From Pseudomonadota bacterium (GTDB lineage: Bacteria; Pseudomonadota; Gammaproteobacteria; Burkholderiales; Sulfuriferulaceae): a stretch of 64,000 bases of DNA. Location: assembly GCA_021790515.1 (NCBI GenBank), contig JAJYHV010000065.1:13981-77980 (forward strand), read 5' to 3'. Below, one piece after another: positions 12,756 to 56,400 of the stretch. Within the stretch, counting starts at the first letter, position 1; the number at the start of each line of letters is the position of its first letter. Below the pieces are notes generated by a model, which worked only from the letters and a program-made list of their open reading frames with translations, was not told where the DNA came from and did no database searches. The position numbers and the translations under genes are program-made.

Positions 12756-14611
12756 GCCAAACGTTCCACCTGACTCACGTCGCGCACCGCACCAGTAGCA
12801 GCCGACGTTGTCATCGCGGCATACGCACGCAAAGCCGGCGACACCTTGCGCTGCCGCAATTCAACCGGCCGCCAGGCCATCGTTCCTCGCGCAGCCATCG
12901 CTGCCCGTCGAGCCGTCAGCACGTCATCTGTCACCGCAAGATGAATACGGCGCGCCGGAATATCAATTTCAATGATGTCCCCTTCCTCTACCAGACCAAT
13001 CACCCCGCCTTCAGCCGCTTCCGGCGAAACGTGCCCGATGCTCAAACCGGACGTGCCGCCGGAAAAGCGGCCATCGGTAATCAAGGCGCAGACTTTGCCC
13101 AGGTGCTTGGCTTTGAGGTAAGAAGTCGGGTAGAGCATTTCCTGCATGCCCGGGCCACCCTTAGGGCCTTCATAACGAATCACCACCACGTCGCCCGGAC
13201 GAATCCGGTCATCCAGAATTGCCGTCACCGCGCTGTCCTGCGATTCGAAAACCCGGACCGGACCGGAAAAACATAAAATGCTTTCATCAACCCCGGCCGT
13301 CTTGACGATGCAGCCATCCTGCGCCAGATTGCCCTGCAACACGGCCAATCCGCCCTCGCGGCTGTAGGCGTGTGCGGCATCACGAATACAACCTTGCGCG
13401 CGATCGCTGTCAAGCGTCGGCCAGCGCTTGTCCTGACTGAAGGCCACTTGTGTCGGCACGCCGCCGGGAGCGGCACGATAAAACTGGTGTACCGATTCAT
13501 CCTTTGTCTGTCGAATGTCATATTGCGCCAACGCATCCGCCAGTGTATCGCTGTGCACAGTCGGCACGTCGTGATGAATCAGTCCGGCGCGGTCAAGTTC
13601 GCCCAGAATCGCCATCACACCACCAGCGCGATGCACATCTTCCATGTGATATTGTGGTGTGGCAGGGGCCACCTTGCACAAATTCGGCACACAGCGACTC
13701 ATGCGATCGATGTCATGCATGGTAAAAGGCACTTGCGCTTCGTGCGCTGCGGCAAGCAGATGCAGTACGGTGTTGGTTGACCCCCCCATGGCGATATCCA
13801 GCGCCACCGCATTTTCAAACGCGGCAAAGCTGGCAATGTTACGCGGCAGCACGCGCTCGTCATTGCCCTCATAATACCGCTTTGCCAACGCAACAATCTG
13901 GCGGCCAGCCCGTAAAAACAATTGCTTGCGATCAGCATGCGTCGCCAGCACCGAACCATTGCCCGGCAAAGACAAACCCAGCGCTTCAGTGAGACAGTTC
14001 ATCGAGTTGGCAGTAAACATGCCGGAACACGAACCGCAGGTCGGGCACGCCGAGCGCTCGACCTGCGCCACGGTTTCATCCGACTCTTCACTGCTGGCCG
14101 CCAACACCATGGCGTCCACCAAATCAAGTTTCATTACCTGTCCATGCAATACCGTTTTGCCGGATTCCATCGGGCCACCGGAAACAAAAATCACTGGAAT
14201 GTTCAGTCGCAAGGCGGCCATCAACATGCCGGGCGTGATTTTGTCGCAATTCGACAAACAAACCAGCGCATCGGCGCAATGCGCATTCACCATATATTCC
14301 ACGCTATCCGCAATCAAGTCGCGTGACGGCAACGAATACAACATGCCATCGTGCCCCATGGCAATGCCGTCATCAACGGCAATGGTATTGAATTCTTTTG
14401 CCACACCGCCCGCCGCTTCGATTTCACGCGCAATGAGCTGACCCAGATCTTTCAGATGCACGTGACCAGGCACAAACTGGGTAAATGAATTGGCTATGGC
14501 AATCAGCGGTTTGTCAAAATCGGCATCGGTCATGCCGGTGGCGCGCCATAATGCGCGTGCACCCGCCATATTGCGACCATGAGTTGTGGTACGAGAACGA
14601 TAGTCAGGCAT
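12752..14611 (-). CDS. ilvD: Dihydroxy-acid dehydratase
   Basis: [53 protein letters not shown]. Confidence 0.97.
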
Positions 14612-37245: not shown

Positions 37246-39000
37246 CTATAAATAGGTTGGGCAAGAAATACCCAACAATGTCAATCCATTGGCCAATACC
37301 GTGCGCGTTGCCAGAATCATTGCCAATCGCGCTTCGCGCAGGAGCGCGTCCTCCAACAGGAACTGCTCGGCGTTGTAACAGGCATGAAAAGCTGCCGCGA
37401 CTTCTTTCAGCGCGTAAGCAACCAGGTGTGGCGCCAGTTCGCGTGCGGCGGCCGATACCGTTTGTGGATAGTCCGCCAGCGTTTTGAGCAGGTTGATTTC
37501 GTGTTCGGAACTTAACAATCCGGCCTCTGCATTCAACAACAACGCTGTGTCCCCCCCCCACTGGTCCAGCACACTACAAATGCGAGCATGCGCATACTGG
37601 ATATAATACACTGGGTTATCATTACTTTGTGATTTAGCCAAATCCAGATCAAAATCCAGATGCTGATCGGATTTGCGCAGGACATAAAAAAAGCGCGCTG
37701 CATCGTTGCCGACTTCTGCGCGCAATTCACGCAAGGTGACAAACTCTCCGGAGCGAGTCGACATGGCGGCTTTTTGTCCGTTCCGATACAGCACGGCAAA
37801 CTGAACCAAAGCAACCGTCAATCGTTCTGCATCACACCCGATGGCTTTGAGCGCCCCTTTCACGCGTGGGATATACCCGTGATGATCAGCGCCCCAGACA
37901 TCTATCAATCGATCGAACCCGCGTTCCAGTTTGTATAAGTGATAGGCGATATCCGAAGCAAAATAAGTAAACAAACCGTTTTCTCGCTGCACCACACGAT
38001 CTTTTTCATCACCGAAATGCGTAGAACGGAACCAGATTGCCCCGTCCTGTGAATACAAATGACCTTGTTCATCCAGCATATTCAGCGTACGTTGCACCAA
38101 CCCCGAATCAAACAAGGTCTGTTCAGAAAACCACTGATCAAACTGTACGCCAAACTCAGCCAAATCCTGTCGACAGTCTGCCAATTGCTCATTAAGTGCA
38201 AATTGGTGGAAATAAACATAATCGACAGCCAGCAACTCTTTTGCGCTGCCAATCAATGCGTCCAGATGCGCATCCGCATCCGTGTGTGCGGATAACGAAA
38301 CTGGCATAAAGTTCGCCGGATCATGCCAATACTGTCTGGCGTGCTGCGCATAAATTGCCTCGGCCATCTCGCGCACATACGTTCCCTGATAAGCGTTGGG
38401 CGGAAAATCGATGCGTTCACCACAACACTCCAGGTAACGCAGCCAGGTCGACAAGGCTAAAATGTCCATCTGTCGTCCGGCATCATTGACGTAATATTCT
38501 CGCCATACCCGATAACCATTCGCATCCAGAATGTTGGCAAGGCTGGCGCCATACGCTGCCCCGCGACCGTGACCGACGTGCAAGGGTCCCGTTGGGTTGG
38601 CGGAAACAAATTCCACCAGAATCGACTGTTCCTTTCCACTCGAATTTTTGCCATATTCCTGTTTTTGTTGCAGGATGACAGGCACCAGTTGCGGCCAGAT
38701 TTGCGCGTGCAGATAAAAATTGATAAACCCGGCTCCGGCCACTTCGGTTTTGGCAACCCAGGATGATGCCGGCATGGCTTGTAAAATACGCTCGGCCAAC
38801 TCGCGCGGCGGTTTACGCAAGGCTTTTGCCAGTTTCAGGGCGATGTTGCTGGCATAGTCTCCATGCGTGGCCTCGCGGGGTTTTTCCAGTTCGATAACGT
38901 CCTGATATAACCCTGTTTCCTGAATGGCCTGTTGTATCAAACCAGTCAAATGTTCAATTACTTCATTTACAGAGAAAGTCACTATGGCATCCTTATACAA
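37246..39000 (-). CDS. argS: Arginine-tRNA ligase
   Basis: HGDYASN, AGAGFINF, EFVSANPTGPLHVGHGR, MSTRSG, YYIQYAHARI; start uncertain. Confidence 0.97.
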   Translation of the reverse strand: MYKDAIVTFSVNEVIEHLTGLIQQAIQETGLYQDVIELEKPREATHGDYASNIALKLAKALRKPPRELAERILQAMPASSWVAKTEVAGAGFINFYLHAQIWPQLVPVILQQKQEYGKNSSGKEQSILVEFVSANPTGPLHVGHGRGAAYGASLANILDANGYRVWREYYVNDAGRQMDILALSTWLRYLECCGERIDFPPNAYQGTYVREMAEAIYAQHARQYWHDPANFMPVSLSAHTDADAHLDALIGSAKELLAVDYVYFHQFALNEQLADCRQDLAEFGVQFDQWFSEQTLFDSGLVQRTLNMLDEQGHLYSQDGAIWFRSTHFGDEKDRVVQRENGLFTYFASDIAYHLYKLERGFDRLIDVWGADHHGYIPRVKGALKAIGCDAERLTVALVQFAVLYRNGQKAAMSTRSGEFVTLRELRAEVGNDAARFFYVLRKSDQHLDFDLDLAKSQSNDNPVYYIQYAHARICSVLDQWGGDTALLLNAEAGLLSSEHEINLLKTLADYPQTVSAAARELAPHLVAYALKEVAAAFHACYNAEQFLLEDALLREARLAMILATRTVLANGLTLLGISCPTYL

Positions 39001-39047
39001 GTATCGGCTATTATATCTCGTCCTTTACCGAACGGGTTACCGGAAGC

Positions 39048-41213
39048 CTATAACTGCAAGGGGTCAACATCGAGGTGCCAATGTACGCCCCGTTTAGGCA
39101 ACGCATAAATTTGTTGTGCCCATTGCCGTAAAAATTCCTGCAGCTTTTTTCGATGCGATGACTGTACCAATAGCAGCGCCCGTTCGCGCCCAGCCTTGCG
39201 CGGCATGTTGTCCGGGATCGGATCGAATGACAGGATGGCATCCGGACAACGGTATACATTTTTGGCTTGTTGCAAAAAATCCAGCGCCCGGTCCATGGTT
39301 GGCGCATCCGCACGCAATACGGCCTGATACACAAAGGGAGGAAATCCCGCCTGCTTTCGTTCTGACAGCAAAATTTCCGCGTAACCTGCATAATCATGCC
39401 GTTGTAATGCCTGATACAAAGGGTGTTGCGGAAATCGGGTCTGAATAATGACCTGCCCAGCCTGCTGCGCACGGCCTGCCCGTCCGCCAACTTGCATGAT
39501 CTGGGCAAACAAGCGTTCCGATACACGGAAATCCGTACTATACAAGGCATCATCCGCGCCAACGACAGCAACCAATGTCAAATTGGGGAAATCATGCCCT
39601 TTCCCAATCATCTGTGTTCCAACCAGAATATCTACATTACCTGTTTGAATGGCATCTTGCATGCTTTGCCAGTTTTGCTCACCCTGCGCGGTATCCTGAT
39701 CAATCCGTAATACGCGAGCAGCAGGAAATCGTTGCCGCAAGTATTGTTCCAACCGTTGCGTTCCAAATCCCCCGGGATGCAAATCCAGATTGCCACATTC
39801 CGGACAGGCTGATTTCATCTTCTCCTGATAACCGCAATGGTGACAACGCAAGGTATTGTTCGACACGTGCATTACCAGTCGGACGCTGCAACGATGGCAT
39901 TGCGCGGCCCACCCACACTCATGGCAATACAAGGCAGGAGCATATCCTCGCCGGTTGACATAAATCAAACTTTGTTGTTTTATATCAAGTCGCTGCTGAA
40001 TTGCGGCTTCCATTTCCAACGCAAGGCCGGACGGTGTTTTATGCACGCGCGTATCCAGTAACTGTACGGAAGGCAACGTTGCTTTTCGTGCGCGATGCAA
40101 TAAAGGTAAATAATGATAGCGCCCGATTTTTGCGTTATACCAACTTTCCAGGGCCGGCGTTGCCGAAGCCAAAACAATGGGACAGTTTTTTCGTTGTGCC
40201 CGAACTATCGCCACATCACGCGCGGCATAACGCAATCCGTCCTGTTGGAAATAGGCACTGTCATGTTCTTCATCGACAATGATGAGACCAAGATCGGGTA
40301 ATGGTGTAAAAATAGCCATGCGTGTGCCAATAATGACCGACACACCACCAGCGCTGGCTTGTTGCCAATCGTAAATCCTTTGTCCTGCCGGACGATCGCT
40401 ATGCAGAACGACCAATTGATGTGCGGCAAAATAGCGTCGTAACCGGGTTTCCATTTGCGTGGCAAGACGAATTTCTGGTACCAGGATCAATATTTGTTTC
40501 GGTTGAAAATGTTGCACCAAATGCGCAAAAATCTCGGTTTTTCCACTACCGGTGACCCCGTGCAGTAAAAACGGGCTGAATGTTCCTTCCGTGTGCTGAA
40601 TGGCCGCATAAACCTGTTGTTGCGCGGTATTCAATGCCAGCAAAGGTTGCAAGGCCGGTGATGATGGCGCTTTGGTTTGTTCGGTTTGTATCCAGCGCTG
40701 TTCCAACCAGCGTTTTATGATTTTTTTTTCCTGTATATTACAGTCCGAGGACAATACCGCACCTGTTTTCAATTTTATCCACAAGGCTTGTTGTACGCGT
40801 GCTTGCGTTGGCAAGCTACCTGCTTGTTGCAAGCCCTGTTCCGTCAGAATATACTGCTCTGCTTTTTTCTGCGCCGATTTGCGGCGATTTAACTGTCTGA
40901 ATGTTGCCGGCAGGGCGGTAAATAGCGTGGCTCCCATTGGATAATGATAATATTGACTGCAAAATTCGATTAGTTGCATGATTTCAAAAGACAAAATTGG
41001 TTCGACATCCAGGCATGCCGCGATTTCTTTCAGGCGCTCGGCTTCGGCTTCTGAACAGGATTCCACTGTCAGCACGATTCCCAGTTTTTCTCGCGTTCCA
41101 AAAGGCACGCGAACACGAATACCCGGTTGAACCAACTGGTCGTTTTTTATACGATAACTGAATGCTTGCGGAATAGGTAAATCAAGTACGATATTGGCAA
41201 TGGTCGTCGTCAT
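39048..41213 (-). CDS. priA: Primosomal protein N'
   Basis: GVTGSGKTE, DEEHD, SATP, four CxxC zinc motifs, Q-x2-GRAGR. Confidence 0.96.
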   Translation of the reverse strand: MTTTIANIVLDLPIPQAFSYRIKNDQLVQPGIRVRVPFGTREKLGIVLTVESCSEAEAERLKEIAACLDVEPILSFEIMQLIEFCSQYYHYPMGATLFTALPATFRQLNRRKSAQKKAEQYILTEQGLQQAGSLPTQARVQQALWIKLKTGAVLSSDCNIQEKKIIKRWLEQRWIQTEQTKAPSSPALQPLLALNTAQQQVYAAIQHTEGTFSPFLLHGVTGSGKTEIFAHLVQHFQPKQILILVPEIRLATQMETRLRRYFAAHQLVVLHSDRPAGQRIYDWQQASAGGVSVIIGTRMAIFTPLPDLGLIIVDEEHDSAYFQQDGLRYAARDVAIVRAQRKNCPIVLASATPALESWYNAKIGRYHYLPLLHRARKATLPSVQLLDTRVHKTPSGLALEMEAAIQQRLDIKQQSLIYVNRRGYAPALYCHECGWAAQCHRCSVRLVMHVSNNTLRCHHCGYQEKMKSACPECGNLDLHPGGFGTQRLEQYLRQRFPAARVLRIDQDTAQGEQNWQSMQDAIQTGNVDILVGTQMIGKGHDFPNLTLVAVVGADDALYSTDFRVSERLFAQIMQVGGRAGRAQQAGQVIIQTRFPQHPLYQALQRHDYAGYAEILLSERKQAGFPPFVYQAVLRADAPTMDRALDFLQQAKNVYRCPDAILSFDPIPDNMPRKAGRERALLLVQSSHRKKLQEFLRQWAQQIYALPKRGVHWHLDVDPLQL

Positions 41214-41294
41214 TGTATGTTTGTCAGTACGTTTGTCACGAAATCTTAAAATATTGTTCATAAATCTGACGCGCCGTTTTGCCAAAATGGTGGC

Positions 41295-42512
41295 ATGAAC
41301 GATGAAATTCTACTACAGGTTTTTCCTTCCCGATCCCAATCATTGCGCATAGCTTTGGTAACGGAGACCTATCCGCCCGAAATCAATGGTGTGGCCATGA
41401 CGTTGGGGCGGCAGGTTGACGAATTACAGCGTCGTGGGCATCAAATCCAGCTGATTCGACCTAAACAAGGGGTTTTTGATGTCGCGGTATCCAATCCACA
41501 TTTGGAAGAAGTTTTAAAGCCTGGTGTTCCCATTCCACGTTATGCCGGTTTGAAGCTCGGCTTGCCGGCAAAAGCAGCTTTGGTCAAACTTTGGCGATTC
41601 AAGCGGCCGGATCTTGTTCACATTGCCACTGAAGGTCCGCTTGGCTGGTCAGCGCTTTCGGCCGCACAAAAGCTTCGTTTACCCGTCAGTACGGATTTTC
41701 ATACCAATTTTCATAGTTACAGCCGTCACTATGGCGCAGGATGGTTACGTCGCCCCATTCTGGCGTATTTACGCAAATTTCACAACAAGGCCTGTGTGAC
41801 GCTGGTTCCTACCAATGCCATTCGTGAAGAATTGCAAGAACATGGCTACCGTAATCTGGAGGTGGTCGCGCGCGGAGTAGATACCGAACTTTTTCACCCC
41901 GATCGTCGTGATGCACACCTTCGTGCTTCGTGGGGAGTTTTGGATGATACCCCTGTCGTACTATATGTTGGTCGCTTGGCTGCCGAAAAAAACCTGCCGC
42001 TGGTTTTTTCTGCGTTCAATGCGATGCGCCAGGAAAATCAACGGGTAAAGCTGGTTTTGGTCGGTGACGGACCAGAGTTGCCCACACTAAAAACCCGTTA
42101 TCCGGATGCCATTTTTTGCGGTTTGCGCCGAGACGAAGACCTCGCTCGCCACTATGCCTCAGCTGACATTTTTTTATTCCCCAGCCTCACCGAGACTTTT
42201 GGTAACGTTACCACCGAAGCCATGGCAAGCGGTCTGGCAGTGGTTGCTTATAATTACGCGGCAGCTGAAGCTTTAATTCGGCATCGCATCAATGGTTTGG
42301 TCGCTGCACCACAAGATAGTACTGCTTTCGTTCGCGAAGCTGTATCATTGGTCACCGACCCATCACAAATCAAGGGTATCGGAAGGAACGCTTTTCAAAC
42401 AGCATTGTCTATTTCATGGCCTGAAGTGCATGATCGGTTTGAACGTGTTCTACAGGCGCTCGTCGAAAAGGAATCCAACCATGGAGAAATTGAGTTGGCA
42501 ATGGGTAGCTGA
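41295..42512 (+). CDS. GT4 glycosyltransferase
   Basis: TETYPPEINGVA, HIATEGPLG, VGRLAAEKN, SLTETFGNVTTEAMASG. Confidence 0.88.
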   Translation: MNDEILLQVFPSRSQSLRIALVTETYPPEINGVAMTLGRQVDELQRRGHQIQLIRPKQGVFDVAVSNPHLEEVLKPGVPIPRYAGLKLGLPAKAALVKLWRFKRPDLVHIATEGPLGWSALSAAQKLRLPVSTDFHTNFHSYSRHYGAGWLRRPILAYLRKFHNKACVTLVPTNAIREELQEHGYRNLEVVARGVDTELFHPDRRDAHLRASWGVLDDTPVVLYVGRLAAEKNLPLVFSAFNAMRQENQRVKLVLVGDGPELPTLKTRYPDAIFCGLRRDEDLARHYASADIFLFPSLTETFGNVTTEAMASGLAVVAYNYAAAEALIRHRINGLVAAPQDSTAFVREAVSLVTDPSQIKGIGRNAFQTALSISWPEVHDRFERVLQALVEKESNHGEIELAMGS

Positions 42513-43038
42513 ACACGAAGCAGGGGTGACGCGTCGATTGAATCGCGCGGGCAGGTTTCCTGTTTTGTTGTATTTGTTTCGTTACATTAGCCGCCTGGGT
42601 AATGGAATATTCTGGTACGTATTGATGATGGTCATGCTTGCCGTTCAAGGTAATCGTGCGTGGCCAATTGTCTTGCAAATGATCTTTGCCGGGTTGTTTG
42701 GAACGGCCATTTATGTCTGGCTCAAAAAGAAAACAATTCGTCCTCGCCCGCATTGTCAATTTGGCAGCATCCATTGTCTGTTAGCGCCTCTTGACCGTTT
42801 CAGCTTTCCGTCTGGGCATACTTTGCATGCGACAGCTTTTACTTTGGTCGCCATCGTTTATTACCCGTTGCTTGCCTGGTTATTGCTGCCCTTTACCTTG
42901 TTGGTTGCTCTCTCGCGTATGGTATTGGGATTACATTATTTAACTGATGTTTTGGCTGGATTTCTCCTTGGTTCAATCGTTGCCGGAATTTCATTTCTTT
43001 TGCTGGATGTTTTATCAAATTACGGATTAGTGGGTTAA
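42481..43038 (+). CDS. PAP2-family phosphatase
   Basis: K-x4-RPRP, SFPSGH, SRMVLGLHYLTDV. Confidence 0.9.
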   Translation: MEKLSWQWVAEHEAGVTRRLNRAGRFPVLLYLFRYISRLGNGIFWYVLMMVMLAVQGNRAWPIVLQMIFAGLFGTAIYVWLKKKTIRPRPHCQFGSIHCLLAPLDRFSFPSGHTLHATAFTLVAIVYYPLLAWLLLPFTLLVALSRMVLGLHYLTDVLAGFLLGSIVAGISFLLLDVLSNYGLVG

Positions 43039-43313
43039 GGAAGCGCTGATTAACTCCTCCACGAGCCGCGTTGCAGACCAAATCGCGATGATCGCGAGTC
43101 GAGCGACGAAGGTCGTAGCCGGGACTACGATGCCAAGGAGGTCGGCGAAGCGAGCGCGCGATTTGGTTGCAACCCATATGGGACGGGGTTTGGCGGGCGA
43201 ACTGCCGCGTTGCGCCGCTTGTCAAGGAGAATAACCCTTGACTGCGCGTCACGCCTTGCATTTCATCCCGCCAAGCCACCGTCGCGACCGTGTGGGAATT
43301 AATCAGCGCTTCC
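43039..43313. mobile_element. Complete 275-bp MITE-like element
   Basis: Perfect 15-bp TIRs GGAAGCGCTGATTAA / TTAATCAGCGCTTCC; TTAA on both flanks (43035-38 and 43314-17); no transposase. Confidence 0.88.
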
Positions 43314-43324
43314 TTAAGGAAGCC

Positions 43325-43353
43325 AGTCTTTGGTTTGGCCAAGACTCTTTTTT
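43325..43353 (+). terminator. Probable intrinsic terminator
   Basis: AGTCT(T)TGG...CCAAGACT hairpin followed by a T6 run. Confidence 0.5.
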
Positions 43354-43517
43354 CCTTCGTTCGGCACACATGACAACAGGCGCCAAGACTGCTTTCACGT
43401 CTGTTGCGATTTTTTGGCAAACGATTAATGAACGCGCCTACCAGAAATCCGCTTTAACCACGATAATGGTGCTCGCTTATTTTTACGTAGGCTCTTGTCA
43501 TGTTGTTTGTTGCGACA

Positions 43518-45944
<2,427 letters not shown>

Positions 45945-46001
45945 AGGCGTATTGCGTTGATTCAAGTGTGGTTAATGATTTTTTGCTAAAAACTCGACAA
46001 A

Positions 46002-47114
46002 TTATATTCTCATCGACATAACGACATATTTAAAATCATCTCGTTCGGGTAAGGTAATTAACATACTGCTATTTGCATCGTTAAAATGGCAGAAAACATG
46101 ATTCGTATCAATCGCTGATAAAAGTTCTAACAAATAAGTTACATTAAAGCCAATATCGAGAGGAATTCCTTGATATTGAACGGATAACAATTCTTGAGCT
46201 TCCTCTTGTTCGTTATTATTGCTAATAATTTTTAATTCGTTTTGCGATAGTATAAAACGTATTCCACGAAATTTTTCAGTGGATAAAATTGCAACTCGTT
46301 GTAAAGATTGCAAAAACTCAAGTCGTTCAATTTGCATGACATTGGTATGATTTTTGGGAATGACTTTATGGTAATCCGGAAATTTTCCATCAATCAATTT
46401 TGAAATAATTTGAATACTATTTAATTCAAAACAGATTTGTTTTGAATAAATGGTAATGTTTACGAATTGTTCGCTTTCGTCTTTCAATAATTTAAATAAT
46501 TCCAGAATGGTTTTTCGAGGAACAATCCATTCGCCTGGAACCGGATTTTCCGGTTCGGGTAAATATGCCCAGCTTAATCGATGTCCGTCTGTTGCAACCA
46601 GTTCAATTTGATCCGAAAGGACATTAAATAACATTCCATTCAGGTAATATCGAAAGTCTTGTTGTGCCATGGCAAACTGAACTTTGGCAATATGTTGTTT
46701 TAATGTTTTTTGTTCAATTTGAATATGATTGGATTGTTCGACGGGAAGAATAACCAACGGATAATCATTTGCTGGAAGAGTTTGCAAATGAAATCGACTT
46801 TTTTTGGTACGAATCAACAATTGATGATCCGGATTTTCCAAGAAGACGGTTTCCGTTTCGGGTAAGGCACGAAAAATATCAACAATTTTTTTGGCCGATA
46901 CCGTTAAAGCAAAATCAATCGCCTGAAATGATTTGTCCGGACAAGATGCTGTTATCTGGATGTCTTGATCCATGCTGGTAACAGAAAGAACGGTGTTTTT
47001 ATGTTCAATTAAAATATTGGCAAGAATAGGTTGATTGGCGCGTTTCTCGACAATATTGGCAACGGTTTGAAGAAGTGGCAAAAAAACCTGTCGTTTAATT
47101 TCCAATAATAACAT
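46002..47114 (-). CDS. dnaN: DNA polymerase III beta clamp
   Basis: PILANILI, MAQQDFRYYLNG, VATDGHRL, KLIDGKFPDY, IGFNVTYL. Confidence 0.96.
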   Translation of the reverse strand: MLLLEIKRQVFLPLLQTVANIVEKRANQPILANILIEHKNTVLSVTSMDQDIQITASCPDKSFQAIDFALTVSAKKIVDIFRALPETETVFLENPDHQLLIRTKKSRFHLQTLPANDYPLVILPVEQSNHIQIEQKTLKQHIAKVQFAMAQQDFRYYLNGMLFNVLSDQIELVATDGHRLSWAYLPEPENPVPGEWIVPRKTILELFKLLKDESEQFVNITIYSKQICFELNSIQIISKLIDGKFPDYHKVIPKNHTNVMQIERLEFLQSLQRVAILSTEKFRGIRFILSQNELKIISNNNEQEEAQELLSVQYQGIPLDIGFNVTYLLELLSAIDTNHVFCHFNDANSSMLITLPERDDFKYVVMSMRI

Positions 47115-47390
47115 TTTAATATAAACCTAATAATTAGAGTCAGTACAGTTCTGTGGAAAACAATCATTTGTTGCAGTTTGTCATGTACTTGGCTTTTTAA
47201 CAATGTTGTGTAAACAGTTTGTTTGATAAGTGCTCTATTTGTGGATAAAAGTGACCGTTGTGGGTAACTGAACGGTTATACACATATTGTCCACATTATT
47301 TAAACAGCTTTGTTTGTTGAATACAATAACAGGGTTTTGTATGACCTTCGCGTTTATTCTTGAATTGTTTTTTATGGCGCACAGCAAAAT
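47115..47390. other. Predicted oriC (DnaA-box cluster)
   Basis: TGTGGAAAA 47152, TGTGTAAAC 47207, TGTGGATAA 47240, TGTGGGTAA 47259, TTATACACA 47276, TTGTCCACA 47287; AT-rich; GC skew flips nearby. Confidence 0.8.
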
Positions 47391-48722
47391 TCAATTGCTT
47401 AAAACTTGTAATAGTACATTGTATTCACGATGAAATGTACTGTCTTCTATTTTTAAATCATTAACCTTATGACAAGCATGAATAACGGTGGTATGGTCTC
47501 GACCACCAAAAGAGGCGCCTATTTCTGGCAGACTCATGTTGGTTAATTCTTTTGCCAAAGCCATAGCCATTTGACGCGGCCGAACAAAAACACGGGTGCG
47601 TTTTTTGGAGTGCAAATCAATCAATTTTATTTTATAGAAATCACAAACGGTTTTTTGTATGTTTTCGATAGAAATTTGGCGGTTTTGAACGGCAAGCAAA
47701 TCTTTTAATGCCTCTTTTGTTGATTCCAGGGATATTGGTTTACCAGAAAAACGTGAAAATGCCAAGACTCGTTTTAATGCGCCTTCCAATTCTCTGACGT
47801 TGGAGCGAATTTGTTTGGCAATAAAAAACGCTACAGTTTCGTCCAGTTCAATATTTTCCATTAATGCTTTTTTTAACAGGATAGCTACACGCATTTCCAG
47901 TTCTGGTGGATCGATGGAAACGGTTAAACCCCAGCTGAATCTGGATTTTAATCGTTCTTCCATATCTGTAATTTCTTTTGGATAGGTATCACAGGTAATG
48001 ATAACTTGCTTCTGATTTTCAATCAGCGTGTTAAAAGCATAAAAAAATTCTTCTTGCGTACGGTTTTTTCCGCTAAAAAATTGAATATCATCAATCAATA
48101 AAATATCCAGCGAATGATAATGACGTTTGAACTCATCAAACATTTTGTGTTGATACGCTTTGACGACATCAGAAACATAATGTTCGGCATGGATATAATT
48201 TACTTTTGCTTCTGGTTGATGTAGTTGAACATAATTACCAATTGCTTGAATCAAATGCGTTTTACCTAAGCCAACACCACCATAAACAAACAACGGGTTA
48301 TAAGCTTTTCCTGGATTATCTGCAACAGCAATAGCTGCTGCACGAGCAAGTTGATTGGCTTTCCCGATCACAAGGGTTTCAAAAGTGCATAACGCATTCA
48401 AGCGATTGATTGTTTTTGTTTTGGTTTTTTTTGGTTGGGCTTGAATGACAGGGGAAGTTGGTGATACGTGCATTGTTTTATTTGGCACATCAACTTGCAG
48501 CAAAATAGAAACAGGTTGACCAAAATATTGTTCGGCAAGGGTTTCAATTCGAGATAAAAATTTGTCTCGCACCCAATCTTGAATGAACCGATTGCCCGTC
48601 AGTAAAATGAATTCATCTTTTGATTCACCAGGTTTTAATGGCTTAATCCAGGTGTTGAACTGTTGTGGGGACAACTCCTGTTCCAGTTTAGGCAGTATTG
48701 TTTGCCAAAATTGAGTCATCAT
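47391..48722 (-). CDS. dnaA: Chromosomal replication initiator
   Basis: [41 protein letters not shown]. Confidence 0.98.
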
Positions 48723-49195
48723 AATATAAATATTTTATTAAAAACAAAGAAATAAAAGCGAATTAAACGACGTAACAAAGTTACCGGTTCTTGATTTCAA
48801 GGTTTAAATCTGATAGAGCACTTTTCAAAGATAACAAGACTTGCTTTTTTGGTCGCGACAGCTCAATCCTTTGTAACAAGGATTTTAATCCGGGTTAGGT
48901 AGATGGTGATTTTATAAAAGGGTTCACGTGAGCATCACACAAGAAACGACTGGAGACAATCATGGGCATGGGCACTAATCTCGGTTTGTTATTTAATAAA
49001 ATATTATGCGATTAATTGAGCGTCCAGCCTGAATAATCAACATATAACGATTCGTTTGCAAATCAATTAAAAAGTGCTATTCGGGAATTGTACGGAAAAT
49101 TTAAAACCTTGCCATGAAATTATTTTATTAAATTTTGTGAATTATTTGTTTTTTTTGAGCTATAATTCAAAACTTTATATTAAACAGGTGTTAAC

Positions 49196-49342
49196 ATGAA
49201 ACGTACATATCAACCTTCAGTTGTTCGTCGGAAAAGAACACATGGATTTTTGGTGCGCATGCGTACCAAAGGAGGCCGAGCCGTCATTAATGCGCGTCGA
49301 GCCAAAGGCAGGCATCGGCTTTCGGTTGGAACTTCGCGATAA
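49196..49342 (+). CDS. rpmH: 50S ribosomal protein L34 (absent from the ORF track)
   Basis: [48 protein letters not shown]. Confidence 0.97.
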
Positions 49343-49482
49343 TCATGCATTTGTTTTGATGATATAGTGAAACAAAAGGTTAAATAAGCATCAAGCTTGT
49401 CAAGAACAGGTAACATATATTGTCTTGAATACAGGTATCGCCAAGATAGTGCTTTGTTCGCCTACGTGTAAAAGTGCCGCTT

Positions 49483-49845
49483 ATGAGTGATTTGCGTTAT
49501 AAGTTTGTCCGTGCGCAACGGCTCTTGGTTACCCAACAATTTCAGACGGTTTTGAAGTCGGTACGACGATTCAAAGGCAGGTTGTTGCAATTACAAGCGC
49601 TGGATGTCAATATGCCGCATGCGCGTTTAGGTATTGTTGTCGGCAAAAAACAACTGTCCAGAGCCAATCGTAGAAACACGATAAAGCGACATATTCGTGA
49701 ATATTTTCGTTTGCATCAGCATGATTTTTTACCATTGGATTATGTGGTAAGGGTGAATCAACGGTTTTTACCGGAAGACCTTGCAGAGGTCATGAAGGAA
49801 TTGGAGCGCTTGTTTCAACAGGCAAAACGATGCAACAAATCTTGA
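49483..49845 (+). CDS. rnpA: RNase P protein component
   Basis: RLGIVVGKK...[16 protein letters not shown]; position after rpmH. Confidence 0.92.
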
Positions 49846-50039
49846 TTGTTTTGATCAGGGCGTATCAATATGTGATCAGTCCATGGCTTGGACCCCGTTG
49901 TCGTTTTACGCCAACCTGTTCCAGTTATGCCATGGAAGCCATTTCACGACATGGTGCTATGCGTGGTTTGATTATGGCATTGCGACGAATTTCGCGTTGT
50001 CATCCACATCATCCGGGTGGTTATGATCCGGTTCCATAA
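49830..50039 (+). CDS. yidD: Membrane protein insertion efficiency factor
   Basis: [15 protein letters not shown]-x3-GGYDPVP. Confidence 0.95.
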
Positions 50040-50062
50040 ATAAACAGAGCAATGGATTTTGT

Positions 50063-51676
50063 ATGGATGTTCAACGTATCATATTAGCCGTTATTTTTTC
50101 TTTTTCCTCGTTAATGCTATGGCAATCGTGGCAAAAATTCAATATACCGGCATCAACAGCGGAAGTTGTTGTTCACCAAACGGAACCTGGTAAGTCATCG
50201 ATACAACAAGCCGAGGTAATTCGTCAGGAAAACCTTTTGCAACAAGGTAGTGTCGTTAGTATTCAAACAGACACGTTGCAGGCACAAATCAATACCCTTG
50301 GCGGTGATGTTCAACAAATTGCTTTGTTGAATTATCATGATTTGCAACACAAGAACGTTCCGCTGATGTTGTTGCAGGATACCGCAACCAATAAATTCGT
50401 TGCGCAGTCAGGTTTATTGGGGAATCAATTACCCACACATAAAAGTCTGTTTCAAGCAAAAGCAAAGAACTATGTGTTAATGAAGGGACAAACCGAATTG
50501 GTTGTTCCTTTGTACTGGGACGATGCAGCAACAGGAATACAAGTCGAAAAAGATTATGTTTTTTATCCCGATTCTTATCGAATAGATGTTCGCTGGATAG
50601 TGCACACCCCACACCCGTTGACAGAACCCATAGAGGCATATTTTCAGTTTGTACGAGACGGAAAAGCGCCCATTGGAGAATCAAAGGTGGTGCACACCTT
50701 TACAGGCCCTGCTTTTTATACCCAGGCCAGCAAATTTAAAAAAGTCAGTTTTGAGTCACTAAACAAACACGAACAACAGATTCCGCCTGCGGCCAATAAT
50801 GGTTGGGTGGCTATTGTGCAACACCATTTTGTTTCCGCCTGGCTACCAAAAAACGGTGAACACCGTGAATTTTATGCGAAAGCGCTGGGTAACGGGTTGT
50901 ATAAAGCCGGGGTATTGTTGTCAGGGAACAAAATTTCCAGTAATACCGTTTGGCAAATGGACGTTCCTTTGTATGTCGGTCCACAAATACAAAAAACCCT
51001 GGCGGGATTGGCGCCCGGATTGACCTATGTCGTTGATTACGGCTGGTTAACGCCCATTGCGGTACCTCTGTTCTGGGTGTTACAAAAAACCGAGGAAATC
51101 ACCGGGAACTGGGGGTGGGCCATTATTATCCTGACCATTTTGATCAAACTGGCGTTTTTCCCGTTGTCTGCCAAAAGTTATCGTTCGATGGCACAAATGA
51201 AGCAATTGACGCCAAAACTGCAGCAATTGAAAACGGTCTATGGTGATGACCGGGAAAAACTGCATCATGCGATGATGGAATTATATAAAACGGAAAAAGT
51301 AAATCCTTTGGGCGGTTGTTTGCCAACTGTGGTACAAATTCCGGTTTTTATTGCGTTATACTGGACTTTGGTAGGTAGCGTGGAAATGCGGCAAGCGCCG
51401 TTTATCGGCTGGATTCATGACTTGTCTGCGCCCGATCCTTATTATGTATTACCCATTTTAATGGGCCTGACCATGTTGTTGCAGACACGGCTGAACCCAG
51501 CCCCACCAGACCCCATGCAGGCAAAAGTCATGATGGTGATGCCGGTGGCATTCACTGTTTTCTTTTTGTTTTTTCCTTCGGGACTGGTGTTGTACTGGGT
51601 GGTCAGCAACATCATGTCCATGAGTCAACAATGGGTGATTACCCGGCAAATGGGTAAGAAAACGGTTCGTGGTTGA
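50063..51676 (+). CDS. yidC: Membrane protein insertase
   Basis: VDYGWL, GNWGWAII, NPLGGCLP, DLSAPDPYYVLP, GLVLYW. Confidence 0.97.
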   Translation: MDVQRIILAVIFSFSSLMLWQSWQKFNIPASTAEVVVHQTEPGKSSIQQAEVIRQENLLQQGSVVSIQTDTLQAQINTLGGDVQQIALLNYHDLQHKNVPLMLLQDTATNKFVAQSGLLGNQLPTHKSLFQAKAKNYVLMKGQTELVVPLYWDDAATGIQVEKDYVFYPDSYRIDVRWIVHTPHPLTEPIEAYFQFVRDGKAPIGESKVVHTFTGPAFYTQASKFKKVSFESLNKHEQQIPPAANNGWVAIVQHHFVSAWLPKNGEHREFYAKALGNGLYKAGVLLSGNKISSNTVWQMDVPLYVGPQIQKTLAGLAPGLTYVVDYGWLTPIAVPLFWVLQKTEEITGNWGWAIIILTILIKLAFFPLSAKSYRSMAQMKQLTPKLQQLKTVYGDDREKLHHAMMELYKTEKVNPLGGCLPTVVQIPVFIALYWTLVGSVEMRQAPFIGWIHDLSAPDPYYVLPILMGLTMLLQTRLNPAPPDPMQAKVMMVMPVAFTVFFLFFPSGLVLYWVVSNIMSMSQQWVITRQMGKKTVRG

Positions 51677-53000
51677 ATTTGTTCAGCGGGATACCATTGC
51701 TGCCATTGCTACCCCGGTCGGTGCGGGCGGCATAGGAATAATCAGAATTTCAGGGTGGCAACTTGAATCTTACGCGATACAACTGTTAGGCAAGGTTCTA
51801 ACGCCCAGGGTGGCTTGTTTCACAGCGTTTCGGGACGAAAGAGGGCAAGTATTGGATGAAGGGTTGGTATTGTATTTCCCATCCCCTCATTCATATACTG
51901 GTGAAGACGTGTTGGAATTGCAGGGACACGGCGGGGCAGTTGTTCTGAATGCCGTGTTGCATCGATGCCTGCAATTAGGTGCGCGGATTGCCAAACCTGG
52001 CGAGTTTACTTATCGGGCGTATTTGAATCAAAAACTTGATTTGGCGCAAGCGGAAAGCGTGGTGGATTTGATTCACGCGAGCAGCATCGAAGCAGTTAAA
52101 TGCGCAACCCGATCGTTACAGGGAGAGTTTTCGACGCAAATTTTTCGTTTGGTAGAACATCTCGAATCGTTACGCGTCCAAATAGAAACCGCGTTGGATT
52201 TTGCGGATGAAGCGCTGGATTTTATTCAACAACAAGACGTTGCGCAGCGATTGGCAACCTTGTGGCAAGACATTGCAAGGATTGAACAAGCCAGTCAACG
52301 AGGTTCGGTTTTGCGGGAAGGAATACATCTGGTCCTGGTCGGACAACCCAATGCAGGAAAATCCAGTTTACTTAATCAATTGGCAGGAAACGACAGGGCC
52401 ATTGTTACACCGATGGCAGGAACAACCCGTGATACCATACGAGAGTCGTTATTGATTGAGGGGATTGTTTTTCACGTGATCGATACTGCCGGTTTGCGTG
52501 AAACGACGGATCCGGTTGAACAGGCGGGGATTGATCGTACCCGGCGTGCCATCGAGCAGGCAGATGTGGTTTTGTTGTTGGTTGATGCAAGAAATCCACA
52601 GGCATCGGATAGCGTTATGAAAGAACTACCGCAACAGATACCTTGTTTACGGGTGTTTAATAAAGTGGATTTATTGGCTGCTGATAGACCGGTTGAAGCA
52701 GACGCTTGTTATATTTCCGCCAAAACGGGGCAGGGTTGTGATCATCTGCGGCGGGTTTTGGTGAGCATGGTGGCGGGGCAGGTCGAAAACTCCAGCGCTT
52801 TTTTGGCGCGCTCGCGCCATCTTGATGCTTTGCGACAAGCCAGGGAATACGTAAGTCACGCAACTGAAAAATTTGCATGGCTGGAGTTGATGGCGGAAGA
52901 CCTGCGGTTGGCGCAAGCGGCATTGATGGAAATCACCGGACCGAAAGATGCCGATGATTTGCTCGGAAAGATTTTTTCCGAATTTTGTATTGGTAAATAA
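51669..53000 (+). CDS. mnmE: tRNA modification GTPase
   Basis: DTIAAIATP, SYTGEDVLE, GQPNAGKSSL, GTTRD, DTAG, FSEFCIGK. Confidence 0.97.
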   Translation: MVEFVQRDTIAAIATPVGAGGIGIIRISGWQLESYAIQLLGKVLTPRVACFTAFRDERGQVLDEGLVLYFPSPHSYTGEDVLELQGHGGAVVLNAVLHRCLQLGARIAKPGEFTYRAYLNQKLDLAQAESVVDLIHASSIEAVKCATRSLQGEFSTQIFRLVEHLESLRVQIETALDFADEALDFIQQQDVAQRLATLWQDIARIEQASQRGSVLREGIHLVLVGQPNAGKSSLLNQLAGNDRAIVTPMAGTTRDTIRESLLIEGIVFHVIDTAGLRETTDPVEQAGIDRTRRAIEQADVVLLLVDARNPQASDSVMKELPQQIPCLRVFNKVDLLAADRPVEADACYISAKTGQGCDHLRRVLVSMVAGQVENSSAFLARSRHLDALRQAREYVSHATEKFAWLELMAEDLRLAQAALMEITGPKDADDLLGKIFSEFCIGK

Positions 53001-53032
53001 CTTCAGCAAGTGAGGTTAACAGGAAATTTGCG

Positions 53033-53048
53033 TGTTTCACGTGGAACA
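53033..53048. other. parS site
   Basis: TGTTTCACGTGGAACA, canonical. Confidence 0.9.
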
Positions 53049-53104
53049 ACAGCATTTTTCTGTTTTGAAATCAACAAGGTAATCCAGTTTGATAAAAGGT
53101 GATC

Positions 53105-55015
53105 ATGGAATTTGATGAATCATTCGATGTGATTGTCATCGGAGGTGGCCATGCAGGAACGGAGGCGGCGCTGGCAGCGGCTCGAATGGGAGCCAATGTC
53201 TTATTGTTGACCCATAATCTGGAAACGTTAGGACAAATGTCGTGCAATCCCTCGATTGGCGGGATTGGTAAGGGGCATTTGGTAAAAGAAATTGATGCTT
53301 TGGGTGGCGCCATGGCGTTAGCGAGTGATGAAGCCGGTATACAGTTTCGTATTTTAAACGCGTCCAAAGGGCCGGCAGTGAGAGCGACTCGCGTGCAGGC
53401 CGATCGTGTGTTATATCGTCAAGCCATTCGATCGCGGTTGGAAAACCAACCGGGATTGCGTTTGTTTCAGCAGGGTGTGGAAGACATTCTGGTCCAGGGC
53501 GAGCAAGTGGTTGGCGTCAAAACTCAATTGGGCCTGACGTTTCGCGCCAGGCAGGTGGTGTTGACAGCGGGCACCTTTCTGGCGGGACTGATGCATGTGG
53601 GGTTGAACCAGCAAACAGGTGGACGTGCCGCGGAACCCGCTTCCGTACAACTGTCTGCCAGATTGCGAGAGCTTGATTTGCCGGCAGGACGGTTAAAAAC
53701 AGGCACTCCGCCCAGAATTGATGGCCGCAGCATCGATTATTCTCGTTTGCAACAGCAGCAAGGAGATGAGCCGGTCCCGGTTTTTTCGTTTATGGGCAAA
53801 CGAGAAATGCATCCTCGGCAAGTGGCTTGCTGGGTGACGCACACGAGCGAAGCCACGCATGAAATCATTCGAAGCGGCATGGATCGCTCACCGCTGTATA
53901 CCGGCGTCATTCAAGGTGTCGGGCCAAGATATTGCCCGTCGATCGAAGATAAAATCATTCGTTTTGCTGATAAATCGTCTCATCAGGTTTTTTTGGAACC
54001 AGAGGGGTTGACCACACACGAAGTTTATCCGAATGGCATTTCCACCAGTTTGCCGTTCGATGTGCAATGGAAACTGGTGCGTTCTATTCCGGGGTTGGAA
54101 AATGCGCATCTGTTGCGCCCCGGGTATGCCATTGAGTACGATTATTTTGATCCAAGGGCGTTGCGACGCAGTCTGGAAACTCGCGCAGTAAAGGGTTTGT
54201 TCTTTGCCGGCCAAATCAATGGGACGACGGGGTATGAAGAAGCGGCAGCACAGGGTTTGCTGGCCGGGATTAATGCGGCTCTGGCCGCTCAGGAAAAATC
54301 GCCCTGGATTCCGGGTAGAGATGAAGCCTATCTGGGTGTGATGCTTGATGATTTGACGGTGCGAGGGGTCAGTGAACCGTATCGTATGTTTACCAGTCGC
54401 GCAGAATATCGCTTGTCTCTGCGTGAAGACAATGCGGATTTACGGTTGACGGAAACCGGTCGTCGGTTGGGATTGATCAATAATGAGCAATGGGATGCAT
54501 TCAATCGTAAACGGGACCGGATTGCACAGCAAAACGCGCGCATGAAACAGATTTGGTTGCAACCGGAGAAAGTGGATAATGAGTTGATTTCTCGGGTGTT
54601 GGGAAAACCCATTGAACGAGAATACAATTTGTACGAATTGCTGCGGCGTCCGGAAATACGTTACGCGGATGTTTGCGAATTGTCGACCGAACTGGAACCG
54701 GAAACGGACAGCACAGTCGTGGATCAGATAGAAATCATGGCCAAGTACCAAGGGTATGTGACCAGACAGCAAGCGGATATCGATAAGGCGCGAGAACATG
54801 AAACCCTGTTGTTGCCAACGAATCTTGATTATCACAATATTCCGGGATTGTCCGTGGAAGTCAGACAAAGGTTGATGCAATTCCAACCCGAAACACTTGG
54901 TCAGGCAGGCAGAATTTCCGGTGTGACGCAAGCGGCTTTGATGATCTTGCTGACCTGGGTAAAGCGGCAACCGTCAATCACCAATGCAAGCAGCGCCGCA
55001 GGCAACCATGTCTGA
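53105..55015 (+). CDS. mnmG: tRNA uridine 5-carboxymethylaminomethyl modification enzyme
   Basis: [53 protein letters not shown]. Confidence 0.98.
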
Positions 55016-55634
55016 TGACGACGTGTTTGAGCAACAGGCGGCGCAATTAGGCCTGGCTTTGCGCGATGAAGCCATACAACAATTGCTCGCGTATGTTTCG
55101 TTGCTGCAAAAATGGAATAAAACACATAATTTAACTGCGGTACGCGATGAAGAAATGTTGTCCTTGCATTTGTTGGACAGTCTCGCTATTCTGCCCATGC
55201 TGAGTGGAAAACGCGTGCTGGATGTTGGCAGCGGCGGCGGATTGCCGGGAATTCCATTGGCAATCGCAAGTCCGGAGATGACGTTCACCCTCGTTGACAG
55301 TAATCGAAAAAAAACCAGTTTTCTTCGACAGGTTGTACTGGAGTTGCGACTTCCAAACGTACTGGTGGAGACGCAACGAGTAGAAAACCTGCCGCCCACG
55401 CCAGTGTATGATTGTATTGTTTCGCGGGCGTACGCCAGTTTGCTTCAATTTGTTACGCAGTCACGCCATGTGTTGGCGAAAAACGGTTATTGGTTGGCCA
55501 TGAAAGGACTTTTTCCAGGGCAAGAATTAACGGCGTTGCCAAAAGATGTGCGTATGTTGGCAACAAAGGCCTTACAAATTCCCGGACTGACAGCAGAACG
55601 ACATGTGTTGCAACTAGGAGTTGTGCATGACTAA
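55008..55634 (+). CDS. rsmG: 16S rRNA m7G527 methyltransferase
   Basis: [31 protein letters not shown]. Confidence 0.95.
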
Positions 55635-56400
55635 GATCATGGCGATAGCCAATCAAAAAGGCGGGGTGGGAAAAACCACAACGGCGGTTAATCTGGCCGC
55701 GGGCTTGGCAAGCGAAGGATTGCAGGTCTTGCTGGTGGACCTGGATCCACAAGGCAACGCCACCATGGGTAGCGGAATCGACAAGCGCGGGTTGACGGTG
55801 AGCATTTATCATGGCTTGTTGCGCTTGCGCCGTGCTGAAGAAATTGTCTGCCGGAGTGAACAGGGAAAATATGATGTGTTGCCGGCAAACCGTGATTTGG
55901 CTGGCGCCGAAATCGAGTTGGTGGATGAAGCGGAACGCGAGTTGCGTTTAAAGCAGCTGTTGAATCCTTTTTCATTTCAATATGATGCGGTGTTGATTGA
56001 TTGCCCTCCGGCGTTAAATCTGTTGGCAATCAACGCACTGGCCGCCGCCGACGAAGTAATGATACCCATGCAGTGTGAATACTATGCCCTGGAAGGCGTG
56101 TCCGATCTGGTCAATACCATTCGCCGTATCCGGATGCACATTAATCCGGCGCTGGAAATTGGCGGGTTGTTGCGAACCATGTATAGCGCAACCAGCACGC
56201 TGGCGCAGCAAGTTTCAGAACAATTGAAGAGCCACTTTGCTGATAAAGTGTACGATACGGTGATTCCGCGCAATGTTCGGCTTGCTGAGGCGCCCAGCCA
56301 TGGCTTGCCGGTTTCAGTTTACGATGCTGCGTCCAAAGGGGCGCAGGCCTATCAGGCTTTGGCGCGAGAGATGAAAACACGGTTTCATTCGGTTAAATGA
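55627..56400 (+). CDS. parA: Chromosome partitioning ATPase
   Basis: [47 protein letters not shown]. Confidence 0.96.

Follow-up and report, generated by a model that had tools for sequence, protein, structure and literature searches.

Why does the lowest GC content of a genome fall on dnaA, dnaN and gyrB, and is the bias behind it imported or produced in place? The question is raised by a 64,000-nucleotide stretch of DNA, here called the window (G000:C18:13981-77980, that is, positions 13,981 to 77,980 of contig JAJYHV010000065.1 in assembly GCA_021790515.1), from a betaproteobacterium of the Sulfuriferulaceae. The genome, G000, is a metagenome-assembled genome (MAG) of 1.996 Mb in 80 contigs, 96% complete, with a mean GC of 0.534; its genus forms a family of its own among the genomes compared. 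Within the window a graded AT-rich valley (39000..56000) surrounds the probable replication origin, oriC. The reading that we favour, with a probability of about 0.6, is that the valley is native and vertically inherited, and is kept in place by a position-dependent excess of G:C>A:T changes, the likeliest cause of which would be cytosine deamination linked to the origin.

Shape and centre of the valley

In 1-kb windows GC content falls from about 0.55 over 0-33 kb to 0.50 at 38-40 kb, 0.47 at 42-44 kb, 0.39 at 45-46 kb and 0.341 at 46-47 kb, then climbs through 0.36, 0.41 and 0.49 to about 0.51 by 53-54 kb. Values under about 0.50 run from roughly 40 to 53 kb; the floor, at 46-49.5 kb, lies at 0.29-0.39, and the tails extend to priA on the left and to mnmG and rsmG on the right. 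There are no sharp compositional borders: the largest jump between neighbouring 1-kb windows is 0.056. The composition is atypical for the genome, the 3-kb minimum of 0.354 lying about 7 standard deviations under the genome mean (sd 0.025), and the valley is the sole multi-kilobase low-GC tract in G000; otherwise there are blips of 1-2 kb on contigs C19 and C69. In this genome-wide ranking masked runs of N were left out of the GC denominators; if counted there, N runs on contigs C48, C23, C3, C71 and C5 mimic low GC.

The depression covers at least 14 kb of coding sequence and is not confined to about 1 kb or less of non-coding DNA. Against a genome mean GC at third codon positions (GC3) of 0.594 (sd 0.055, 1304 long open reading frames), dnaN, on the valley floor (46002..47114, minus strand, 370 aa, TIGR00663), has 0.28, dnaA (47391..48722, minus strand, 443 aa, TIGR00362 at 573 bits) 0.30, and gyrB (43518..45914, minus strand, 798 aa, NCBIfam) 0.37; GC at first and second positions is likewise lowered. 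There is a gradient even inside gyrB, from 0.30 in the oriC-proximal quarter to 0.39-0.40 farther out. The left shoulder consists of priA (39048..41285, minus strand, GC3 0.46-0.47), a GT4 glycosyltransferase gene (41295-42512, plus strand, about 0.45) and a PAP2 phosphatase gene (ending at 43038, plus strand, about 0.45). To the right of dnaA, all on the plus strand, follow rpmH (L34, 49196..49342, 48 aa, PF00468) and rnpA (49474..49845, GC3 0.45), then the right shoulder with yidC (50063..51676, 0.47) and mnmE (51669..53000, 0.46), and in the outer tail mnmG (53099..55015, 0.53). In the valley proteins the share of the residues F, Y, M, I, N and K (FYMINK) rises from about 0.19 to 0.32, the value in DnaN, and that of G, A, R and P (GARP) drops from about 0.30 to 0.15.

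Fourfold-site GC on the contig was fitted as background minus amplitude times exp(-|d|/lambda), d being the distance from oriC and the per-site variance about 0.22. The fit gives a background of 0.69-0.70, an amplitude of 0.32 and a lambda of 7.0 +/- 0.9 kb (left 6.97 kb, right 7.11 kb), and the exponential (residual sum of squares 3168) fits better than a Gaussian (3171) or the best box (3179).

A first-pass annotation of the same DNA had described a gradual rise in AT from priA to dnaN and a fall through yidC and mnmE, without sharp edges, over 39000-53000. The 1-kb profile agrees, and the five 60-base G+C counts that it gave (11, 16, 18, 17 and 45) proved exact on recounting. The dip does lie where it was placed, but the valley is slightly wider, mnmG and rsmG still being mildly low. 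It is genuine in GC3 and in fourfold-site GC as well. DnaN, called rich in I, K, N and F, contains 10.0% I, 5.9% K, 5.9% N and 5.4% F, with just 1.9% G. The annotation's gene calls (priA, gyrB, dnaN, dnaA, yidC, mnmE and pepP) were upheld by NCBIfam, on which the names of the GT4 glycosyltransferase, PAP2 phosphatase, rnpA, mnmG, rsmG, parA and parB genes used here also rest; pepP is a pepP-like Xaa-Pro aminopeptidase gene.

To judge from its sequence, the 276-bp spacer between dnaA and dnaN (47115..47390) is the probable oriC and the probable centre of the valley. It holds five DnaA boxes with at most one mismatch (47152-47295), including a perfect box, TTATCCACA, at 47240-47248; the window holds 28 boxes against 12.3 expected, with clustering in this spacer adjoining dnaA. 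GC skew changes sign at about 46-47 kb. More exactly, the flip falls at the gyrB/dnaN border (~46.0 kb), about 1.2 kb to the left of the DnaA-box cluster, and the fourfold sites of dnaN have a plus-strand skew of +0.35. The offset could be due to noise in DNA so rich in AT, to asymmetry being lost near oriC, or to initiation at a point left of the boxes.

Two parS-like sites, both on the plus strand and each with one mismatch to TGTTTCACGTGAAACA, lie within the valley: TGTTTCACGTGAAACC in the gyrB-dnaN spacer (45929..45944) and TGTTTCACGTGGAACA in the mnmE-mnmG spacer (53033..53048). Given these, nucleation of the ParB partition complex probably takes place within the valley. Spreading of ParB from both sites was considered as a conceivable cause of the valley, but most bacteria with parS have none.

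Assembly and ancestry

Is the valley real, and is it native? A chimeric or mis-binned metagenome assembly comes to mind for a MAG in 80 contigs, and the first-pass annotation had voiced concern over assembly continuity; a related contig from ENA, L162, is a mosaic of two clades and possibly chimeric. Ten assemblies were found by exact-identity lookup of RpmH (JGI 3300047582, NCBI GCA_021790625.1, two Logan runs and six from ENA). These are independent and come from four sources (JGI, NCBI, ENA, Logan); they share composition, and in 10/10 the order gyrB-dnaN-dnaA-rpmH-rnpA-yidD-yidC is kept wherever the contig reaches, which opposes a misjoin. The valley is also present in a congener with a complete genome in a single contig (G017), and its transitions are gradual and fall inside genes. 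We give an assembly artefact next to no weight.

Two of the ten, L159 and L161, match the window at 99.6-100% identity and form, with G000 and the mosaic L162, clade A. Clade B comprises L157/L160/L163-165, L158 and L156, with mutual identities of 93-99% and about 90% identity to clade A. L162 (ENA ERZ27236847) is 100% clade A (G000) at 43.5-48.6 kb, then 98-100% clade B over the 5' end of dnaA, rpmH and rnpA; with its breakpoint at about 48600-49800 in the window, it is either a natural recombinant or a chimeric assembly of co-occurring strains. When metagenomes were scanned with DnaA in search of a third close relative, the best match reached only 75% identity.

The comparison with sister genomes that the annotation had suggested reveals no patchiness: in all 15 congeners profiled, G017 included, a valley is centred on dnaA, 10-20 GC points deep on backgrounds of 46-57% GC. 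The controls Marinobacter, Neisseria and Nitrospira have only the ordinary intergenic dip of about 1 kb, and other families of the same order mostly have dips 1-3 kb wide and 4-8 points deep. Deep valleys occur independently in G038 and in a Gallionellaceae MAG. In the Gallionellaceae MAG CYS170214_bin_14 (L057) dnaN and dnaA have GC3 0.29 and 0.30, and the yidC side is graded but the gyrB edge is abrupt (GC3 0.62), which suggests that gyrB came next to dnaN recently in that lineage.

Trees, another of the checks proposed at the outset, are congruent: DnaA+DnaN+GyrB and MnmG+ParA+ParB+AtpA give the same topology, with the genus monophyletic (support 100/99). This bears directly on the idea that the valley is a horizontally acquired or ancient foreign origin module, now undergoing amelioration. 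Such a module could be expected to stand out by its composition, and the valley does, with the lowest GC of the genome; however, quite apart from the congruent trees and the monophyly of the genus, the nearest DnaA outside the genus belongs to neighbouring betaproteobacteria, the borders are not sharp, all profiled congeners have the valley, non-orthologous neighbouring genes are depressed along with the rest, and amelioration is not seen. A foreign source accordingly has, in our estimate, a vanishingly small probability.

The native genes have nevertheless diverged unusually. Branches of valley genes are 1.8-2.8 times as long as those of flank genes in deep-valley lineages (0.65 vs 0.36 for the G000/G022 stem, 0.35 vs 0.15 for G013/G005, 0.93 vs 0.33 for G038, 0.69 vs 0.31 for GalCYS) and 1.0-1.3 times in shallow ones. 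Relative to the sister G016, DnaA has gained 31 and lost 9 FYMINK residues, and gained 10 and lost 27 GARP residues; AtpA changes are non-directional (8/8 and 11/12). AT pressure has, over time, pushed DnaA, DnaN and GyrB towards AT-coded amino acids.

Position rather than gene identity

Composition in the valley is set by distance to oriC, not by gene identity. The gyrB-distal flank has been rearranged among congeners, yet the genes resident there are depressed in graded fashion. In G021, for example, GC3 runs towards the origin through 0.70, 0.62, 0.55, 0.52, 0.47 and 0.42, and then 0.39 in gyrB and 0.30 in dnaN; the two genes nearest gyrB, at 0.42 and 0.47, have orthologs on another contig of G000 at 0.60 and 0.62. 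The reverse case is priA, which at 7 kb from oriC in G000 has the low GC3 given above, and at 18 kb from oriC in G016 has 0.76 (background 0.67). A miniature inverted-repeat transposable element (MITE; 43035..43317) between the PAP2 phosphatase gene and gyrB is a compositional exception, with GC 0.53 in 43001-43500. It is absent from the sister G022 (the spacer measures 478 bp in G000 and 48 bp in G022), so that the insertion must be recent, and it is still uneroded by the local AT pressure.

Three congeners, G021, G019 and G009, have an asymmetric valley about 35 kb wide (G021:C23 411-431 kb, G019:C1 51-71 kb, G009:C3 220-240 kb). The syntenic side, from yidC to atp (atp/parAB), is at 42-49% GC for 20-25 kb, whereas the rearranged gyrB side recovers in 10-12 kb. 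A longer depression on the syntenic side is expected if depression accumulates with the time that a gene has spent near oriC.

Direction of substitution

Is the valley a relic, or is it being made today? Changes within clade B were polarised by parsimony with G000 as outgroup and counted at third codon positions, from G or C (S) to A or T (W) per GC site and from W to S per AT site. The S>W rate declines from 0.267 at less than 2.5 kb from oriC to 0.150 at 2.5-6 kb and 0.096 at 6-12 kb; the W>S rate is flat over the same three zones (0.088, 0.105 and 0.094). The equilibrium GC content that these rates imply (GC*) is 0.25, 0.41 and 0.50, compared with a current GC of 0.27, 0.43 and 0.57. With S>W falling with distance and W>S flat, every zone is thus at its own compositional equilibrium.

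A three-taxon count in nine bins from -8.5 to +12 kb is symmetric about oriC, with S>W rates of 0.106, 0.149, 0.174 and 0.254 on the left and 0.259, 0.165, 0.125, 0.127 and 0.065 on the right, and W>S again flat at 0.06-0.11. In logistic regression S>W has a slope of -0.145 per kb (z = -6.8, p = 8e-12), with predicted values of 0.261 at oriC and 0.077 at 10 kb; its e-fold distance, 6.9 kb, matches the lambda of 7.0 kb from the composition fit. For W>S the slope comes to +0.016 (p = 0.47). The independent G012/G017 subclade, whose valley is shallow, behaves in the same way (outgroup G007): S>W is 0.154, 0.111 and 0.059, with a slope of -0.142 per kb (p = 5e-6), and W>S is 0.164, 0.159 and 0.120 (p = 0.14). 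A single, roughly 3-fold multiplicative boost to S>W explains shallow valleys, on a GC-rich background, and deep ones alike.

In neither subclade is there any sign of amelioration, with no excess of W>S and GC* at or under the current GC. When G000 is compared with G022, divergence at fourfold sites reaches 0.305 in the core and 0.193 at more than 12 kb; that unpolarised comparison has symmetric counts of S<->W differences, which carry no direction, and a stationary-model decomposition of rates falls between mutation and fixation models. A local surplus of G:C>A:T transitions actively maintains the valley to this day. The first-pass annotation had preferred an origin-linked mutational or repair bias to an acquired island, and on this point it is borne out by the trees, the graded borders, the independent assemblies and the polarised substitutions.

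Spectrum and strand symmetry

Nearly all of the excess consists of G:C>A:T transitions, at 0.253, 0.146 and 0.088 in core, mid zone and flank; A:T>G:C transitions are flat (0.077, 0.092 and 0.082). Among S>W events in the core, 76/80 are transitions. An oxidative G>T signature was rejected on the rarity of S>W transversions. A TC context of the kind left by APOBEC- or DddA-like deaminases was rejected also: among the events polarised over 38770-59320, C>T near oriC is rarest after T (0.031) and commonest in CC and CG (0.095 each), context being confounded here with codon position.

The two strands differ in the flank and not in the core. At 6-12 kb leading-strand C>T and G>A are 0.128 and 0.067, the classical asymmetry; in the core they are 0.245 and 0.261. 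Third-position G/C skew is likewise present in the flank (C 289, G 554) and gone in the core (C 143, G 157). The asymmetry regrows with distance on both sides because lagging-strand C>T drops most steeply, from 0.25 to 0.03. Single-stranded damage restricted to one strand was discarded as an explanation, since the core is without skew, with A about equal to T and C to G at the third positions of dnaN and dnaA. The valley is, then, native, positional, graded, actively maintained, transition-specific and strand-symmetric at oriC.

Does the spectrum leave room for selection? An AT-rich origin domain of 10-30 kb might be favoured for origin opening, for loading of ParB/SMC at parS, or for the binding of nucleoid proteins, and the position of the valley on oriC, the two parS-like sites inside it and its retention across the genus would all suit such a role, as would a passing remark in the literature that low-GC genes near oriC aid opening (PMC8495750). 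Selection of this sort should, however, promote every kind of S>W change and work against W>S, and only G:C>A:T transitions rise, with W>S flat. No structural reason for a smooth exponential out to 10 kb is obvious; more AT-rich sequence sharing a topological domain with the unwinding element would, by our reasoning, compete with that element; the price is amino-acid changes in essential proteins, on branches 1.8-2.8 times longer; and most bacteria, though they have oriC and parS, lack a valley of this kind. We consider selection for AT content distinctly improbable.

Mutation or fixation

A less direct route to the same composition would be local loss of a GC-favouring fixation bias. If GC-biased gene conversion (gBGC) by recombination, or selection for GC, were suppressed around a co-adapted dnaA-oriC module, with overlapping tracts purged, the surrounding DNA would relax to an AT-biased mutational equilibrium. 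The exponential cusp with a lambda of about 7 kb has the shape predicted, its length being the mean tract length. The floor GC3 of about 0.25-0.30 is alike in several deep-valley species and resembles a mutational equilibrium, and in 82% of species the ratio of recombination to mutation (r/m) and GC are positively correlated (PMC11879095). The model can also fit the substitution counts if a rate factor is left free (k about 1.6).

Without that factor the model fares worse. Pure loss of fixation bias predicts a core/flank ratio of W>S rates of about 0.55-0.6, and the ratios observed in the two clades are 0.94 and 1.37 (about 1.1 when pooled); W>S does not fall where GC is low, counter to what gBGC would lead one to expect, although this comparison is confounded by the free overall-rate factor. 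A ratio of about 1.1 means that loss of fixation bias needs an added local rise in mutation of about 1.6-fold, so that a local mutational increase is required either way. Loss of fixation bias also predicts an equal boost on each strand, and the leading strand shows a rise in C>T of about 1.9-fold, the lagging strand one of about 3.9-fold. Published landscapes place recombination higher near the origin (PMC11879095), not lower, and L162 may be a recombinant with its breakpoint within the valley. For these reasons we think it rather unlikely that a lost fixation bias made the valley, and infer that the bias is mutational.

Several observations count against a mutational bias caused by deamination at the origin. 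The events counted are not raw mutations but substitutions that separate lineages 5-10% apart, and parsimony polarisation with a 10%-divergent outgroup brings some error. When an overall-rate factor is left free, a raised S>W mutation rate (k about 0.9) fits just as well as loss of fixation bias with 1.6-fold mutation, and GC-neutral changes, with k = 1.2 +/- 0.4, are compatible with both. For the loss of asymmetry in the core there are about 35-41 events in each class (about 2-3 standard errors), and the result depends on where oriC is put, here at 47.25 kb: the skew changes sign closer to 46.0 kb, and the placement alters the strand assignment of dnaN. Lack of the uracil-DNA glycosylase (UDG) Ung is not sufficient: it is missing from many valley-free outgroups too, a deep valley coexists with a high-scoring UDG in G038, and G016 is without one yet shallow. 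Finally, to our knowledge unwinding over several kilobases at initiation has not been established in vivo for any bacterium.

Possible mechanisms

What could raise G:C>A:T transitions on both strands around an origin? Cytosine deaminates far faster in single-stranded DNA than in duplex. We infer a mechanism of this kind, in which DNA near the origin would be transiently single-stranded on both strands and its cytosines would deaminate there. Either or both of two processes might cause the exposure: at initiation helicases might unwind DNA before coupled synthesis catches up, and AT-rich DNA under negative supercoiling might breathe, a process that would reinforce itself. What has to be explained is a G:C>A:T rate per GC site that is about 3 times as high at oriC as 10 kb away and decays exponentially on both sides with an e-fold distance of about 7 kb, while A:T>G:C stays uniform. 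Loss of asymmetry at oriC is what one would expect if both templates are exposed, and the asymmetry in the flanks is the standard fork signature.

The thin uracil-excision repertoire of the lineage may be a contributing setting. Family-1 Ung (TIGR00628) was found in 0/25 genomes of the genus searched, and was also not found in 14/16 outgroup genomes. G000 has one match to the UDG superfamily (90 bits, C52:8229-8735); within the genus a UDG type scoring about 128 bits occurs only in the shallow-valley subclade (G001, G006, G007, G011, G012 and G017). Absence of Ung or UDG as a sufficient cause was rejected, the correlation being imperfect and the genomes not independent.

A more general proposal, which we put forward tentatively and hold to be less probable than not, is that origin firing leaves a kilobase-scale mutational footprint wherever both templates are single-stranded for long enough that deamination dominates, with an amplitude that would depend on the background balance of S>W and W>S and on the capacity for uracil repair. 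If this were true, the e-fold distance of about 7 kb would be an evolutionary read-out of the in vivo reach of uncoupled unwinding.

Other gene content

G000 carries three RuBisCO large-subunit genes and SoxB (C50:11706-12632, C10:31360-32286, C72:8453-9346, C8:6045-7724), gene content that points to a sulfur-oxidising chemolithoautotroph. AmoA was not found in G000, in a search that matched nothing in the control genomes either.

Comparison with known systems

The finding belongs to replication-linked mutational patterning, in a form that is apparently undescribed: a literature search returned no account of an origin valley graded over several kilobases, nor of a deamination gradient centred on the origin. 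Dependence of bacterial mutation on position has been described as strand skew and as wide waves on a 100-kb scale; here a single mutation class forms a sharp gradient, symmetric about the origin and strong enough for a 20-point drop in GC and for amino-acid replacement in DnaA, the sliding clamp and gyrase. It offers a testable handle on DNA events in the first kilobases after initiation. There is a practical side as well, as valleys of this kind mimic islands and mis-assemblies, and can mislead composition-based detectors of horizontal gene transfer, metagenome binning, and phylogenies of dnaA, dnaN and gyrB.

The published generalisation is that origin-flanking regions are GC-richer and the terminus AT-richer (PMC3091660), which the valley contradicts. 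Recombination, too, tends to be higher near the origin and to correlate positively with GC (PMC11879095), and the linking of low-GC genes near oriC to helix opening (PMC8495750) is a passing, unsupported remark. The valley and the replichore-scale structuring of G+C both tie composition to replication landmarks, but at the origin the valley is opposite in sign and about 100 times smaller in scale.

With low-GC islands acquired by horizontal transfer the valley shares atypical GC and codon usage; it differs in its graded edges, its housekeeping genes, its congruent phylogeny, its presence in every profiled congener and its state of equilibrium. With the DNA unwinding element and intergenic oriC it shares a centre, the DnaA-box cluster. 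The unwinding element, however, spans tens of base pairs, and oriC is a few hundred base pairs of non-coding DNA under functional selection, whereas the valley extends over 15-35 kb, is mostly coding, and affects all three codon positions.

A decay with distance from an origin has a parallel in plasmids. Downstream of the ColE1 origin, error-prone Pol I leaves a mutation footprint whose density decays over kilobases; it is unidirectional and driven by polymerase error. The decay with distance is common to both, and the valley is bidirectional with a deamination-like spectrum.

GC skew produced by deamination of the single-stranded lagging-strand template has the same C>T class of change and the same presumed single-stranded substrate, and the flanks of G000 display it, with a leading-strand excess of about 1.9-fold and a change of sign at the origin. 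Skew is chromosome-wide and strand-asymmetric, and leaves total GC about unchanged; the valley, by contrast, is local, with both strands equal at oriC, skew lost in the core, and GC about 20 points lower.

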